A stretch of DNA of 64,000 nucleotides from a virus (taxonomy: Duplodnaviria; Heunggongvirae; Uroviricota; Caudoviricetes). Below are positions 50 to 53,000 of the stretch, one piece after another. The notes below the pieces were generated by a model. The model worked only from the letters and a program-made list of their open reading frames with translations. It did not search any database and had not been told where the DNA came from. The DNA is taken from positions 1-64,000 of IMG/VR virus record IMGVR_UViG_2713896909_000009. The stretch is one strand, 5' to 3'. Made by a program: the position numbers and the translations under genes. Numbering within the stretch: position 1 is the first letter of the stretch; the number at the start of each line of letters is the position of its first letter.

Positions 50-838
50 TTAATCACTTTCCACTTCTTCCGTGGTGTTTTCTTGCAGTTCTGTTAATGC
101 AGCACGACACAGGTTCCGGGCCTTGGCTATAGCCACACTTTTTACCTCATCCGTCATTGTGCAGGTAATGTACTGATCGAGTTCTTCAGCTCGGATGATG
201 CTTTTCCCAATCATAAACTCTATTTGCCAGAGCAGATCGGCATCCATCGTCAGTATTTCAGCCTGGCCTTCTGGGCCTGCGGGGAAGCAAACATAAGACT
301 GTTTGCCCAGGCCGATAACTCGACAACTTGCTTCAAGAATTGCGCGCTTGAGATCTGACTTTGTAACGGAAACAGGTTGGTTTTCACCTGTGATTACACC
401 GTTGACATGGACGTGGAAGGGCATGTAGCTTGAAATACGCTCTACTTTCCACACGCCAGCAAGCGATCCTTCATGCAGCACAATGGGGGTAACCGCGAGC
501 TTCATCTCACCATATAACTGCTGGCAGATAGCTGGGTTGCTGAATACATCCAAAGGCTCACATTCAAACAGCGGCGCAATCTGCATGAGGTCCATCATGG
601 TCATCCCTGGGGTACGAGCAGTAATGAATTTGCGCATGCCAGTATCCATTGTTCGCCAGATAGCCACACCATGTTTTTTGCTCACTTCTTCAGTAAAGCC
701 AAGGTGGCACATGATGGTTTTTTCGATAGCCAGATCGGAGATAGAAACCTTTTCGCCAGGTACACCATCATTATTGATGGTTACTTCGACGTTCTGGCCA
801 TTACGCAGGCGGTATTGAATTGCTTTAGTATTTTCCAT
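50..838 (-). CDS. hypothetical protein, last gene of the ssb-side minus-strand operon
   Basis: 262-aa ORF starting 7 nt after the upstream 233-aa ORF; no motif recognised. Confidence 0.35.
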   Translation of the reverse strand: MENTKAIQYRLRNGQNVEVTINNDGVPGEKVSISDLAIEKTIMCHLGFTEEVSKKHGVAIWRTMDTGMRKFITARTPGMTMMDLMQIAPLFECEPLDVFSNPAICQQLYGEMKLAVTPIVLHEGSLAGVWKVERISSYMPFHVHVNGVITGENQPVSVTKSDLKRAILEASCRVIGLGKQSYVCFPAGPEGQAEILTMDADLLWQIEFMIGKSIIRAEELDQYITCTMTDEVKSVAIAKARNLCRAALTELQENTTEEVESD

Positions 839-844
839 GTTAAA

Positions 845-1546
845 TCACTCCACTACAAACCAGTCACATGCCAGCAGGTCACCTACAGAAGGCATCCATG
901 GAACAACTACACCTTGTGCATTTTTCAAAACGAAATGCGCACCATAAGGAGCAAGAGGAGAGTCGAAATTGATTTCAAGCTCTCCGTTTGCGGCATGTTT
1001 TATAGGGGTTAGTCTTGAAGCACCCTGTTTGTCAGGAACCAGCCAGCAGAATTGGTTTTCGCCGTTCCACCCGCGTCGAGCAACTTTCTTGCCATCCTTC
1101 AGCCACATCAGCGCGTCAGAAAAGTCGGCTGCTTCAAGGTCGATTTCTTCTTGCTGGGTGGTGATGCCACCAGCAGAAATAGTTACGCTCCCGGTAAGAT
1201 TAATCATCACGCCGTTGTCATCCGTAATGATGACCGTGGTTCCATTTTCGGAGGCGTCGTTAACCAGGCCGTAGCGTTCCTCAAATGGTTTCTCCGGGGC
1301 ATAGAACAGATAACCGTTTTCATAAACGATCAGATACCCGCCAGTTTTTGGTCGGTGTTTTTGTAAAAACATTGCGTCAACACAAACTGTTGCCCCTTTT
1401 GGTTCAACGAGTTCGATGCAGCCCCAAAGTGGGGCATCAGTTACTCCGAAAATAACAACATTTTTAATTTTCGATGCACTAACGTTTTTGTGAGCTTTGT
1501 ATTTGGGAAGGAACTTAAAAAGCTCTTTCGTTGTCATGTTATTCAT
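845..1546 (-). CDS. hypothetical protein with C-terminal DUF2829 (Tad2-like) region
   Basis: 233-aa ORF; C-terminal 'ALMWLKDGKKVARRGWNGENQFCWL' resembles the DUF2829 signature. Confidence 0.4.
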   Translation of the reverse strand: MNNMTTKELFKFLPKYKAHKNVSASKIKNVVIFGVTDAPLWGCIELVEPKGATVCVDAMFLQKHRPKTGGYLIVYENGYLFYAPEKPFEERYGLVNDASENGTTVIITDDNGVMINLTGSVTISAGGITTQQEEIDLEAADFSDALMWLKDGKKVARRGWNGENQFCWLVPDKQGASRLTPIKHAANGELEINFDSPLAPYGAHFVLKNAQGVVVPWMPSVGDLLACDWFVVE

Positions 1547-1560
1547 AGTCTTTTCTCTGC

Positions 1561-1743
1561 TTAAAAGCTGATGTATTGCGCCTTCAGGTGGGGCAAGAAT
1601 GTTTTCCCACCAGCGAAAGCAATATCTCGGGGTGTTCTATTCGTTAAAAGCGCGTGCCATTGCCAACTTTGGCGTTTTTTAGCGAGTTCGTGCTTTTGTT
1701 GGCGTCTGGACCACCGCTTTTCTTTCAGTCGTTTTTTACTCAT
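1561..1743 (-). CDS. small basic protein
   Basis: 60-aa Lys/Arg-rich ORF whose ATG abuts the ssb stop codon. Confidence 0.3.
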   Translation of the reverse strand: MSKKRLKEKRWSRRQQKHELAKKRQSWQWHALLTNRTPRDIAFAGGKTFLPHLKAQYISF

Positions 1744-2232
1744 TCAAAACGGAATATCGTCATCAAAGTCCATTGGAGGTTCGTTATTGGCGTTGCTCTG
1801 AGGTTTACCGCCACCGCTGTATTGCTGGTGGTTTTGAGGTTGGTTCGATTGCCCCCAGCCATTTGAGGGCTGTGAATCGTCACGGCGAGCGCCGATCATT
1901 TGCATGGTGCCGCCCTGGCTGACGATAATTTCCGTCGTGTAACGTTCTACACCGGCGTCATCTGTCCACTTACGGGTTTTAAGTTTCCCTTCGATGTAGA
2001 CCTGAGAACCTTTTCGTAAATACTCACTCGCAATTTCAGCAAGTTTTCCGAACAAAACGACTTTATGCCATTCTGTTTGCTCTTTCTGGTGGCCCGTTTG
2101 TTTGTCGCGCCATGATTCATTCGTTGCGATGCTGAGTCTTCCGACCGCTCCGCCATTTGGTATATACCTGATCTCCGGGTCTTGCCCCAGGGTACCAATC
2201 AGGATGACTTTGTTTACACCGCGTTGTGCCAC
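1744..2232 (-). CDS. ssb: single-stranded DNA-binding protein
   Basis: 162 aa; OB-fold N-terminus '[13 protein letters not shown]', Gly/Gln/Asn-rich linker, acidic tail ending DDDIPF. Confidence 0.93.
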
Positions 2233-2251: not shown

Positions 2252-2268
2252 AAATTAATTAGAGCAAT
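2252..2268. promoter_or_regulatory. C1 operator-like site just upstream of ssb
   Basis: 'aaattaattagagcaat' is the reverse complement of an ATTGCTCTAAT-type 17-mer. Confidence 0.5.
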
Positions 2269-3213: not shown

Positions 3214-3247
3214 ATTGCTCTAATAAATTTGATTTATTAGAGCAAAT
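3214..3247. promoter_or_regulatory. bipartite C1 operator (two overlapping 17-mers in inverted orientation)
   Basis: 'attgctctaataaatttgatttattagagcaaat': a perfect ATTGCTCTAATAAATTT plus an inverted partner. Confidence 0.7.
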
Positions 3248-16697: not shown

Positions 16698-16730
16698 ATT
16701 GCTCTAATAAATTTGATTTATTGGATCAAA
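16698..16730. promoter_or_regulatory. C1 operator (perfect 17-mer plus degenerate inverted partner)
   Basis: 'attgctctaataaatttgatttattggatcaa'. Confidence 0.6.
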
Positions 16731-20454: not shown

Positions 20455-20500
20455 TAGGTCCAAAGAGGAGTTTACGTCCAGCTGCGCACAAAAATCAAGA

Positions 20501-20601
20501 ATTATTAGAGCAATAAATTTTGAGAGAAAAATCCCACTCCACCAGCTAAAAACTGGATTGTTTTTCATAGTTGTTTGACAATTGCTCTAATAAATTATAG
20601 T
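20501..20601 (+). promoter_or_regulatory. C1 operator cluster with sigma70-like promoter facing coi/c1 (Op99-like)
   Basis: 'attattagagcaat' (inverted) and 'ttgaca attgctctaataaatta tagt': -35 TTGACA with the operator in the spacer. Confidence 0.6.
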
Positions 20602-23712: not shown

Positions 23713-23729
23713 CAATTTATTAGAGCAAG
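23713..23729. promoter_or_regulatory. C1 operator-like site abutting the pacB stop
   Basis: 'caatttattagagcaag' (reverse complement CTTGCTCTAATAAATTG). Confidence 0.55.
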
Positions 23730-50036: not shown

Positions 50037-50053
50037 TGAATTTATTAGAGCAA
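50037..50053. promoter_or_regulatory. C1 operator-like site overlapping the dmt stop codon
   Basis: 'gaatttattagagcaat' (reverse complement ATTGCTCTAATAAATTC). Confidence 0.5.
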
Positions 50054-53000
50054 TATAGCAATAACGTCATGAGCTACACCACGAGTGTTCCCCTTACAAG
50101 ACACAGAACGTCTGGCAAAAAGAGGTTCCACTCTGAAGCCACTGTCTTGGTAAAGCTCCCTGATGTTTGGCGCACCACTATTAGTAATGAGGATCTTTGC
50201 ACCTCGGCGATGAGCATCCATTAGCAGAGATACCAGGCGTTTTTGCTCTTCAAACTTAAAGTCATGACCGGAATAGTTTGTGAACCCCTCTGTATTGGGG
50301 AGCGGTTCATACGGAGGATCGCAAAAGATGACATCTCCTTCTCCGGCAGCTTCAATCACCGCTGAAAAATCACCACATACAAACTCAGAACGCCCTTCAG
50401 CACCGAGGAAGGCTTCCATCTCCTGTAATGGGAAATACGGAGTTTTATACTTCCCATAACCAACATTAAACTCACCGGCCTGGTTGTAACGCGTCAATCC
50501 GTTAAAACAATGTCGGTTCAGGAACAAAAACGCTGCTGCACGATGTAAATCATCATAGGCTTGTTTGTTAAACGCATTCCGTACTGCCAGGTATCCTTCC
50601 TGTGTGTTGTAGTCCTGGAAAAACCGATGCGCCAGAGTGATAAGTGAATGTCCCTCACGTTGCAGAGTCCTGTAAAAGTTAATCAGGTCAGCATTCACAT
50701 CATTTAGCAGATTTTCTTGATATCCGGCATTTATGAAAACAGCTCCGCCACCAACGAAAGGCTCGATCAGGCGCTTTCCGTCAGGTAAATGCCTAAAGAT
50801 TTGTTCAAGAACACCAAATTTTCCGCCGACCCATTTAAATATGGGACGGTCAAATTCTGCCGTTAGCTTAACTCTCCGTTCTGTTGCTTCATGATTTTTT
50901 GCCTGCTGATATGCAGCCTTAATAATCCGCTCACCAATCCATCGCATTACTGGTATCGCCATGCTATTGCCGATCGCTTTGTAACGCGGTCCGTCAGCTG
51001 CAAGCATCGCGGCCTCTTCTTCGCTTAAATCTGGATAGTGATTGCGAAGGTATGCCAGTTCATCTGAAGTAACTTTTTTACGCTTTTCCGTCGGGATCAA
51101 CGTATGCCCATCAGGAAAACCTTGCAGTCTTTCACATTCGACAGGGGTAAGACGGCGGACAGCTACTGCTGCGTTTCCTACGTCATAGCAAACGGCTGTT
51201 GTATTTTTGGCCATTAAAGATGGTGAAGTATTCTTAGTTGCAGCATGTTGTGTACCGCTCATACGTTCAGGAAAAGCCAATGTAACAAGATGCTCATGGC
51301 TTTCTTGCTCACGTGCCCGCAATGTACCATGCCCTTCTGACCAAAAACCTGCTCCTGTGCTGCTAAAAACTGCAAGGTCAGTGGCATCTTTAAAGTCTCT
51401 CGCCTTTACTGTCGATGCGGTTTCATCGCCAATATATTCCCCAAATGCCGCCATCCTGAAAGCGTTTACGGCTTTCGTCGATTTCATACCGGGGGTAATG
51501 TCAGCGTGTAGGCATGGATTTAGGCTTTCGCCACTGATTGCAGCGCCATTTGCAATAATGGCGGAAGCGATTTCCTTCTTTTTTCGGCTCGGCGCAATAT
51601 TCCGGCGCACGCCTTCGAACTCAAAAAGTACCGTTGCGGGATCGAGGTCTGTTCGAGCACTTGCGACAACAAACACACGTCGGCGTCGTTGTGCCACTCC
51701 GAAGTATTGGGCATCAAGGATTCTCCAGGCCACCTTTCGCTGCGGTCCATAAATACAACCACACTGCGGCCACTTTGGAGCATGGCAACCGGTTTTGCCA
51801 TCCCACCGCCAGAACGCGTTACTTTTTCCTGATTCAGGTCGATCACCTGGTTCAAATGGCGCATCTTCTCCAGCCAATCCGGCAAGGAAACATCCGAAGG
51901 CGTTATCTGCCGATGACAAGACTCCTGGGACATTTTCCCAGACGATAACGGCTGGTTTGAGAAATGACTCAGCCCGTTTGTCGTCAATTGCATTTGCAAG
52001 CTCCACATACTTTAAAGTTAGCGCGCCACGCTCATCATCAAGCCCACCACGTAATCCCGCGATACTGAATGCCTGACAGTTATGGACCACCGCACCATTG
52101 AGGATATAGGAATGATCACCTTCGACTTCTATGTTGTATACAGTATCTAGGCCTACCGATTTAAACTCTTTGACTGTTCGTAAAAGCATTCCATGAGCCA
52201 ATCTTGATTTACGTGACAATTTCTGCGGGCAGATTGTTACCTGATAATAATTCCGTTGATTTACCACGCGATCCTCGATCACTTTTTTGGGCTCAACTTC
52301 AATAAAGCTGACCGAAGAAACATAACCACAAGTCTGTGACACCCCCGCAACGCCCCAAGCAAGCGCAGGACTAACACTATTAATTCTAAATCCCGCTTTA
52401 CCACTTGGTGTCCCATCAGTATCAAGATAGCCTTGTAAAAACACATGACGCAATGGATGCGACATCACCCATGCAGGGATACGCTTAGCATGGCTTAACT
52501 CGCCAAAATGTTCATTAAGCCAATTGGCATAACACGTATCATTCAAGGTTACTTTGATGCTCCCTCGGATTTCTCTTGCCACGGAAAATATGTTTTCTGG
52601 TATGCGACAATGAAACTTTCTCAATTTCTGGCAATTTATGCAAAAAACAACCGCCTTCTTAGATTTACCTCTCCATCTCCTAATATATCCATCGCCAACA
52701 TAAGCGCCCGCAAGATACATAGCCTGTTCTTCAGACAAGAACCGAGAACAAATATCTGGAGATGCAATATTGAAATTAGTTAGAGCGCACCATTGATATC
52801 CTGGCATATCACATGCTGCTCGCCATTCCGGTTCAGACAACAACTCTCTCTTAAAATATGTGCCATTTTTCCGGGTGTTTTGGGCTTTCCACCGAACAGC
52901 CAGGAAGGGATGGTCATTGGTTGTTCTTATACCTAAAGGCTGCCCAACGGCATTAAGTAACCCCGTATTAGCTATTTTTGAACCAACTCTTTTTACTTGT

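Follow-up and report, generated by a model that had tools for sequence, protein, structure and literature searches.

The question raised by this locus is what protein is encoded by the reading frame found near the beginning of the window (the whole stretch of 64,000 nucleotides that was analysed), whether its C-terminus is related to the Tad2 sponges, and what the remaining part of the protein is. A gene had been proposed here by a sequence-only reading, and the exact ORF, on the minus strand with an ATG start and a product of 233 aa, could be assigned at that place. It is identical to the RefSeq CDS WP_059241930.1 in NZ_CP117630.1, which carries the label 'DUF2829 domain-containing protein', and phrog_872 matches the full length of the protein (E 5.9e-53). 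The record in question is plasmid pEA22_2 of Escherichia albertii BIA_22 (95,979 bp, classed as non-mobilizable), with 100% identity to the first 3 kb of the window. Given 93-97% identity of the region to phages SJ46, Ro157c2YLVW and P1, the element in the window can be classed by its sequence as a P1-like phage-plasmid.

The gene is the third of an array on the minus strand with the order ssb, orf60, Tad2-like gene and isaA-like gene, separated by gaps of 0, 14 and 6 nt. Upstream of ssb a match to the C1 repressor operator was found, the counterpart of Op21/Ossb in the P1 record; the window has ten matches to the C1 operator consensus, where chance alone would give 0.04. No terminator-like sites were found on the minus strand of the array. 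A promoter consensus scan of positions 1-2400 gave no sigma-70-like promoter, so that the case for an operon depends on the P1 annotation and on the match to the C1 operator. The gene had been described as part of the ssb operon, which is reasonable for a gene that lies downstream of ssb, shares its strand and is separated from it by a 60-codon ORF, behind a C1 operator match and without an intervening terminator-like site.

The evidence for the coding status of orf60 is weak. P1 and three sister plasmids also have this frame open, with 4 synonymous vs 9 non-synonymous changes, while the frame annotated in P1 as the N-terminal extension of IsaA contains stops in the window. NCBIfam and PADLOC scans of the Tad2-like protein, orf60 and the IsaA-like protein gave no match, nor did a sequence search of the IsaA-like protein against the PDB. 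The coordinates of all features are collected in the table below.

Table. Features of the ssb-isaA array and of the Tad2-like protein, with positions in the window.
Feature	Position	Strand	Remarks
C1 repressor operator match (ATTGCTCTAATTAATTT)	2252..2268	-	16/17 to consensus; upstream of ssb
ssb	1744..2232	-	first gene of the array; Pfam SSB E 1.5e-39; P1 ssb annotation
orf60, unannotated, very basic, 60 codons	1561..1743	-	from the ORF list; start abuts the ssb stop
Tad2-like gene, complete ORF, 233 aa + stop (845-847)	845..1546	-	OB-fold domain + linker + Tad2-like domain
OB-fold domain, residues ~11-96	1259..1516	-	motifs LPKYKAHK..SASKI and GGYLIVYENGYLFYAPEKPFEERY
Beta-rich linker, residues 97-134 (NGTTVIITDDNGVMINLTGSVTISAGGITTQQEE)	1145..1258	-	two allelic forms in the population
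Conserved junction (IDLEAADF) and Tad2-like domain, residues 135-233	848..1144	-	Pfam part, residues 141-232, at 851-1126
W160-N161-G162, GWNG loop of the predicted ADPR-ligand pocket	1061..1069	-	aligned with SPO1 W25/N26 and HgmTad2 W21/N22/G23
Variable beta2-beta3 insertion, long allele, residues 171-201	944..1036	-	pLDDT ~40
W217-M-P-S220-V-G-D223, second half of the predicted pocket	878..898	-	aligned with SPO1 W73/S76/D79 and ModTad2 W72-TPSVS-D78
isaA-like gene	50..838	-	last gene of the array; phrog_2326 E 8e-150; P1 IsaA annotation

The resemblance of the C-terminus to DUF2829 had been attributed to a short motif only; the string quoted for it, ALMWLKDGKKVARRGWNGENQFCWL, corresponds to residues 145-169. 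The Pfam scan proposed as a check gave a significant match to PF11195 (Tad2-like/DUF2829; E 2.6e-21, 76.3 bits vs a gathering score of 25), and this match is full-length, covering positions 2-73 of the 73 in the profile. The assignment thus stands on much broader ground than a motif, and it is also borne out by PDB sequence matches and by the predicted fold. Sequence matches in the PDB comprise five different solved Tad2 proteins and include ModTad2 (9eib, 8v3e), SptTad2, HgmTad2/AcrIIA7 and SPO1 Tad2. The E-value for ModTad2 is 1.5e-12 (9eib) with the full protein and ~2e-13 (9eib/8v3e) when only the domain is used as query. Among solved structures ModTad2 is the closest (33-35% identity), and the motif 'PSV(S/G)D' is common to both proteins. 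In the AlphaFold2 model built from 46 homologues the Tad2 core has a pLDDT of 80-90, with a helix at 142-150 followed by strands, and model confidence is low for residues 174-201 of the insertion. In a Foldseek comparison with the PDB, Tad2 structures fill each of the first 24 ranks (target-normalised TM 0.62-0.87).

Residues known to contact the ADP-ribose-derived ligand in solved Tad2 proteins could be located by alignment. The published contacts of SPO1 Tad2 (W25, N26, W73, S76, D79; 10.1101/2023.05.01.538930) and of HgmTad2 (W21, N22, G23, W87, S90, D93; 10.1101/2023.11.15.567273) correspond to W160, N161, G162, W217, S220 and D223. W160, W217, S220 and D223 are invariant across the 46 homologues, and N161 is replaced by K in the short-insertion allele. 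Peripheral contacts of SPO1 Tad2, with the adenine or with ordered waters, are changed (T78 to G222, I63 to L207, T65 to N209, D67 to Q211 and H71 to V215). In HgmTad2 the insertion corresponding to the variable beta2-beta3 insertion makes a cyclic-dinucleotide pocket (10.1101/2023.11.15.567273). The residues of that pocket (R31, S47, F70, N85) are not retained here: R31 is replaced by V170, N85 falls in a gap, and F70 is the sole one with an aromatic counterpart, Y201. This second pocket is a feature of a subfamily and does not define the family. From the profile, the alignments and the model, the C-terminal 99 residues can be regarded as a bona fide Tad2-family domain with the predicted core pocket residues intact. 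Helix alpha1 (FSDALMWLK) is nearly invariant in the alignment of 46 homologues; it carries the fusion point and belongs to the Tad2 tetramer interface. The PDB also holds an AcrIIA7 homologue of 158 aa with an N-terminal extension, in four chains (9kzr).

It is highly improbable that the DUF2829 domain has a different role in this protein, as an AcrIIA7-like anti-CRISPR, as a toxin of the MW1434 family of type I toxin-antitoxin systems or as a decaying passenger. According to PDB titles, AcrIIA7 was the name under which a DUF2829 protein was initially described, and one plasmid copy of the present gene is labelled MW1434 family toxin. However, the anti-Cas9 activity of HgmTad2/AcrIIA7 was not reproducible (10.1101/2023.11.15.567273), the NCBIfam and PADLOC models give no match, and the ORF is intact, is under purifying selection and has been conserved in over 200 plasmids. 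A bioinformatic survey is the origin of the MW1434 label. Proteins of the Tad2 family have been found to act against Thoeris types I, II and IV as well as CBASS and Pycsar (10.1101/2025.08.24.671296), so that 'anti-Thoeris' alone is too narrow as a label.

The remainder of the protein had been called an unrelated N-terminal domain of 140 aa. It is indeed unrelated to Tad2, and its ~134 residues have no Pfam match, but it is a recognisable domain followed by a linker. The domain is modelled as a five-stranded barrel with an inserted helix, at a pLDDT of ~90 in both models, and reaches a pTM of 0.80 when modelled alone as a monomer. It shows a Dec-type OB-fold, with Dec of phage L (PDB 6e3c) as the nearest solved relative. 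No Pfam entry matches it, and the PHROGs of its family (phrog_11049, phrog_9467, phrog_32732) have no function assigned in that database. In a profile search of 1.84 billion representatives, 4,731 clusters were retrieved at E<=1e-3, of which 2,126 also passed E<=1e-10; the members are mostly stand-alone proteins of 85-100 aa. In three other phages examined the homologues are found among small early or accessory genes, outside the structural modules. Tyr, His and Lys are frequent among the invariant or near-invariant residues of the domain (Y16, H19, K20, Y71, Y75, Y79, Y92).

Several candidates for the identity of this domain were set aside. Giant adhesin-like proteins (~1,600-5,400 aa, with 3-28 matching stretches each) were the top hits of the profile and were rejected as homologues because they have in common only the hairpin motif GG-x-I-V-x-x-x-DG-S-Y-S-Y-T-P of VCBS-like repeats. 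Lockin was rejected as well, being a hexameric curved beta protein that is reported as absent from INPHARED phages, and the newer sponge TadIV-1 was considered and rejected. No paper was found in the literature that ties the N-terminal domain to Dec or to fusions with Tad2, Sequestin or Acb4.

The similarity to Dec raises the question of whether the protein is part of the virion, as a decoration or fibre protein with the OB-fold bound to the capsid, the linker trimerising and DUF2829 displayed distally. The order of secondary structure elements (beta1-3, alphaOB, beta4-5, helix, beta-rich tail) does mirror that of Dec (PMC6449081), the motifs 'kpevGGYl' and 'aFe.nYt' are common to both, and the phmmer alignment with Dec reaches into its C-terminal spike region (INLTGSVTISAG vs ITLTGAVTGSAS), which in Dec is a trimerising three-stranded beta-helix. 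In addition, homologue P0010 bears a tail-fibre repeat at its N-terminus, and a homologue in a Pseudomonas phage is annotated 'capsid decoration protein'. The linker of 38 residues that aligns with part of the spike is predicted as four short strands with a pLDDT of only ~55, and it is followed by another domain and not by the end of the protein; most family members lack the spike segment. The family signatures Y-x-C-H-K and Y-E-D-G-Y, kept in the present protein, are lost in Dec, which suggests that it is Dec that has diverged. As a trimer that binds the capsid, Dec is made late, whereas the present gene carries a Tad2 domain and is situated in a presumably early operon, behind the C1-controlled ssb promoter and together with DNA-metabolism genes. 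It is also dispensable: P1 is without it, the P7 record matches the query from ssb onward only, and the homologues of other phages belong to small early or accessory genes. Based on these results a virion-associated function is very unlikely.

A different relationship became apparent from the partners of the N-terminal domain. Pfam scanning of 62 multidomain members of its family revealed partners from only three families, PF21825 (12 proteins), PF11195 (10) and PF13876 (4), and the N-terminal domain precedes the partner in every case examined. Some family members, such as P0152, P0158, P0159, P0194 and P0242, have C-terminal extensions of ~100 aa without an assignment, which are candidates for new sponges. 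PF21825 corresponds to Sequestin and PF13876 to Acb4, both of which are sponges by experiment and have known fusions with Tad2 (10.1101/2025.07.12.664507). A fourth partner is RyR Tad, gp68 of Pectobacterium phage vB_PatP_CB1 (10.64898/2026.06.04.730250). Residues 2-71 of gp68 match the N-terminal domain profile in hhalign with 96.7% probability (E 3.3e-10), and hmmsearch gives 32.6 bits in two segments, the central third (profile positions 25-59) being missing. A phmmer search with the RyR-like C-terminal domain of gp68 found no such partner among the retrieved proteins with the N-terminal domain. These comparisons show that one small N-terminal domain precedes four unrelated sponge domains, Tad2, Sequestin, Acb4 and RyR Tad, all experimentally shown to be sponges (10.1101/2025.07.12.664507; 10.64898/2026.06.04.730250). 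This recurrence in front of other sponge domains supports an anti-defence role, which we infer to be the best reading of the present protein as well.

The point of fusion to Tad2 is conserved. Of 120 homologues, 110 have a junction motif like IDLEAADFSDAL and 75 have this exact string, irrespective of the upstream partner, which can also be a dUTPase (P0059) or the tail-fibre repeat of P0010.

The distribution of the gene marks it as an accessory gene of P1-like elements. P1 is without exactly this ORF: its DNA is collinear up to the ATG, and in P1 that ATG starts isaA. RCS47 has an interrupted copy, while in D6-like elements the gene follows dut and is again situated before an isaA-like gene. 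In PLSDB, 231 plasmids have a copy at a query coverage of at least 80%. An allele was detected in 213 of 5,426 complete E. coli genomes, with 213 of 220 places on plasmids, almost always of ~90 kb. According to a DefenseFinder survey of 2025, Tad2 is carried by 56% of the P1-type and 93% of the D6-type phage-plasmids (10.1101/2025.09.12.675607).

The alleles are mosaics occurring in many combinations of at least nine OB types (46-72% identical to each other), two linker types and three Tad2 types, the latter with a long, a medium or a short insertion, and the substitution N161K belongs to the short type. Three sister plasmids illustrate this. In L008 the DNA of the OB module is 99% identical to that of the window and the Tad2 module 78%, in L010 the values are 78% and 99.7%, and in L009 they are 74% and 78%, while the flanking genes of all three are 95-100% identical. 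The OB, linker and Tad2 modules have thus been exchanged independently among P1-like plasmids. The dN/dS ratio of the Tad2 domain is 0.19-0.34, which points to purifying selection on this module. To judge from its value of 0.40-0.54, the OB domain evolves fast, under purifying and not positive selection. The OB and Tad2 modules are therefore old functional units that are being exchanged, and not decaying sequence.

Such shuffling bears on a reading in which both halves of the protein are directed against host defence, with the OB-fold domain itself a sponge or immune antagonist and the protein bivalent like Acb4-Tad2 or Acb4-Sequestin. In one variant the N-terminal domain would bind a different signal; in another it would bind a phage structural protein or a TIR sensor, and so mask sensing or bring the sponge to the source of the signal. 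The family consists mostly of stand-alone, phage-borne domains of ~90 aa (the 4,731 clusters mentioned above) encoded in early or accessory gene runs and not in structural modules, and its fusion partners come from four unrelated sponge families; Sequestin was discovered by the same reasoning from fusions (10.1101/2025.07.12.664507). Its conserved Tyr, His and Lys residues are as expected at a ligand site, and the OB alleles have diverged to 46-72% identity despite flanks of 95-100% identity and are swapped independently of the Tad2 module. Against this, the sole homologue tested, residues 1-86 of gp68, is inactive alone against type I Thoeris and forms a domain-swapped dimer through strand beta1 in the crystal, where its role is dimerisation (10.64898/2026.06.04.730250), and the dN/dS of the OB domain reflects purifying rather than positive selection. 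In gp68, however, the N-terminal domain is shortened by its central third, and a single defence system was assayed. We consider a bivalent protein unlikely. It is also rather unlikely that the OB-fold domain as such is a widespread anti-defence module, either a new sponge or a binder of a structural protein or sensor that masks the trigger or positions the sponge; this would explain its independent fusion to four sponge families and the shuffling of its alleles apart from Tad2.

The gene probably encodes a sponge for immune signals, an accessory protein that the P1-like phage-plasmid would express early. We infer this from the family match, the predicted fold, the pocket residues, selection, operon context, accessory status, the fusions and parallels in the literature. 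According to this reading, the array from ssb through orf60 and the Tad2-like gene to isaA would be transcribed once C1 repression is lifted upon infection or induction, the early timing following from the ssb-operator annotation of P1. The Tad2 domains would assemble like the solved Tad2 tetramers, with pockets between protomers formed by W160/N161 of the GWNG loop and W217/S220/D223 of the C-terminal loop and helix. These pockets could trap a TIR signal derived from ADP-ribose, for which 3'cADPR, His-ADPR and N7-cADPR are the candidate classes, or some other nucleotide immune signal, so that the downstream effector would stay off. A further pocket, for a different nucleotide, may be provided by the variable beta2-beta3 insertion; such pockets occur in some Tad2 proteins. 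The OB-fold domain is most likely an oligomerisation or accessory module. The dimeric RyR Tad homologue, inactive alone on type I Thoeris, can be cited beside this role.

Identification of the Tad2 domain is in itself not new, as it is already found in RefSeq, UniRef and DefenseFinder-based surveys. New are the identification of the N-terminal domain and its relation to Dec and RyR Tad, its recurrent place before four sponge families, and the independent shuffling of modules in P1-like plasmids. The N-terminal domain is the real lead of this analysis. It lacks a database entry, and it is a candidate anti-defence or sponge-accessory module that has gone unnoticed. P1-like phage-plasmids are widespread in E. 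coli, Shigella and Salmonella, and the hosts that they can enter and persist in are determined by their accessory genes. If confirmed, the sponge would add signalling-based immunity to the defences they counter, beside restriction, which is countered by the Dar system. The swapping of alleles on near-identical backbones also provides a natural experiment for mapping changes in sponge specificity.

Compared with the known Tad2 proteins (SPO1 gp34.65, ModTad2, HgmTad2/AcrIIA7, SptTad2), the present protein has the same profile, predicted fold, GWNG loop and W-x-x-S-x-x-D segment, and is likewise phage-borne, accessory and probably early. It differs in length (233 aa vs ~90-105) through the N-terminal extension of 134 residues comprising OB-fold and linker, in the changed adenine and water contacts and the long allele-specific beta2-beta3 insertion, and from HgmTad2 in the missing residues of the cyclic-dinucleotide pocket. 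RyR Tad gp68 shares the homologous N-terminal beta domain followed by a C-terminal sponge domain; however, its sponge is an all-helical RyR Repeat12-like domain, its N-terminal domain is shorter, and it has no beta-rich linker. In N4-like phages, too, anti-signalling genes cluster beside SSB (10.64898/2026.06.04.730250).

In the sponge-sponge fusions described so far (Acb4-Tad2 of Pasteurella phage Pm86, Tad2-Sequestin and Acb4-Sequestin; 10.1101/2025.07.12.664507), Tad2 is likewise joined to a small phage domain, and fused Acb4-Tad2 proteins are active (10.1101/2025.07.12.664507). The partner in the present protein is a candidate module, in contrast to the proven sponges of those fusions. The N-terminal domain is absent from Pfam, and the Pfam-based fusion screen of that study would therefore have missed such a protein. 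A C-terminal Sequestin (PF21825) domain is also present in relatives of the protein; P0088, for example, combines all three elements, the N-terminal domain, Tad2 and Sequestin, in a single polypeptide.

In P1-like and D6-like elements alike, the isaA-like gene is the next gene after the Tad2-like gene; the two stand after ssb in the former and after dut in the latter. Based on this same adjacency in two groups of phage-plasmids, the two genes appear to move as a pair; in P1, isaA is retained without the Tad2-like gene. No match was found for the isaA-like protein in Pfam, PDB, NCBIfam or PADLOC. For IsaA of P1, a 56-residue N-terminal extension beginning at a GTG start is annotated, while the corresponding frame in the window is interrupted by three stops. 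The start of P1 IsaA is therefore probably the internal ATG (MTAQNTK...).

Coordinates of the features in the window and in two loci of related elements (L002, L011)
Feature	Sequence	Positions	Strand	Description
isaA-like gene	window	50-838	-	262 aa, phrog_2326
isaA-like gene	L002	2267-3043
isaA-like gene	L011	2158-2925
orf60	window	1561-1743	-	60 codons, strongly basic, unannotated; MSKKRLKEKRWSRRQQKHELAKKRQSW...
C1 operator matches	window	2252-2268, 3214-3230, 16698-16714, 20498-20514, 20581-20597
C1 operator matches	window	23713-23729, 33681-33697, 39446-39462, 50038-50054, 54583-54599

Two chimeric homologues of the Tad2-like protein, P0059 and P0010, retain the junction GGITTQQEEIDLEAADF, with the region upstream of it swapped wholly or in part. 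A complete dUTPase takes the position of the OB domain in P0059 (241 aa, 15 member sequences), and in P0010 (306 aa) an N-terminus of tail-fibre repeats substitutes for the first ~23 residues only. In D6, a C-terminal-only DUF2829 gene is located directly downstream of dut, so that either read-through or a deletion may have produced the dUTPase-DUF2829 fusion.

Seven representatives of the N-domain family (P0152, P0158, P0159, P0194, P0242, P0239 and P0248) carry a further C-terminal region of ~90-125 aa, for which no Pfam family match was obtained. Because the identifiable partners of the N-domain are all sponges, these extensions are candidates for new sponge domains. The top scores in the N-domain profile search were reached by giant adhesin-like repeat proteins of ~1,600-5,400 aa (P0121-P0126 and similar). 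These scores are due only to a repeated hairpin motif, 'GGTIVIAADGSYSYTPAPNFNG', which is similar to 'GGYLVVYEDGYLSYSPEKPFEEGY' of the N-domain; the resemblance probably reflects a common beta-hairpin motif rather than homology of these adhesins to the N-domain.

One plasmid copy of the two-domain gene (NZ_CP148988.1, 2121-2792; hit H86) is labelled 'MW1434 family type I TA system toxin' and not DUF2829. Among the papers found, MW1434 is mentioned in a single one, in which toxin-antitoxin systems of S. aureus are surveyed both bioinformatically and functionally. The 233-aa protein of the window gave no match to the NCBIfam models.

Between ssb and the Tad2-like gene lies orf60, the ATG of which directly adjoins the ssb stop. 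Its frame is likewise uninterrupted in P1 and three sister plasmids. Of the 13 substitutions, seven are at third codon positions; 4 changes are synonymous and 9 non-synonymous, a pattern which hints only weakly that orf60 is coding.

A scan of the window for the consensus operator of the P1 C1 repressor, ATTGCTCTAATAAATTT, allowing up to two mismatches, returned ten matches versus 0.04 expected by chance. These sites provide a predicted map of the immunity-controlled promoters of the phage-plasmid.
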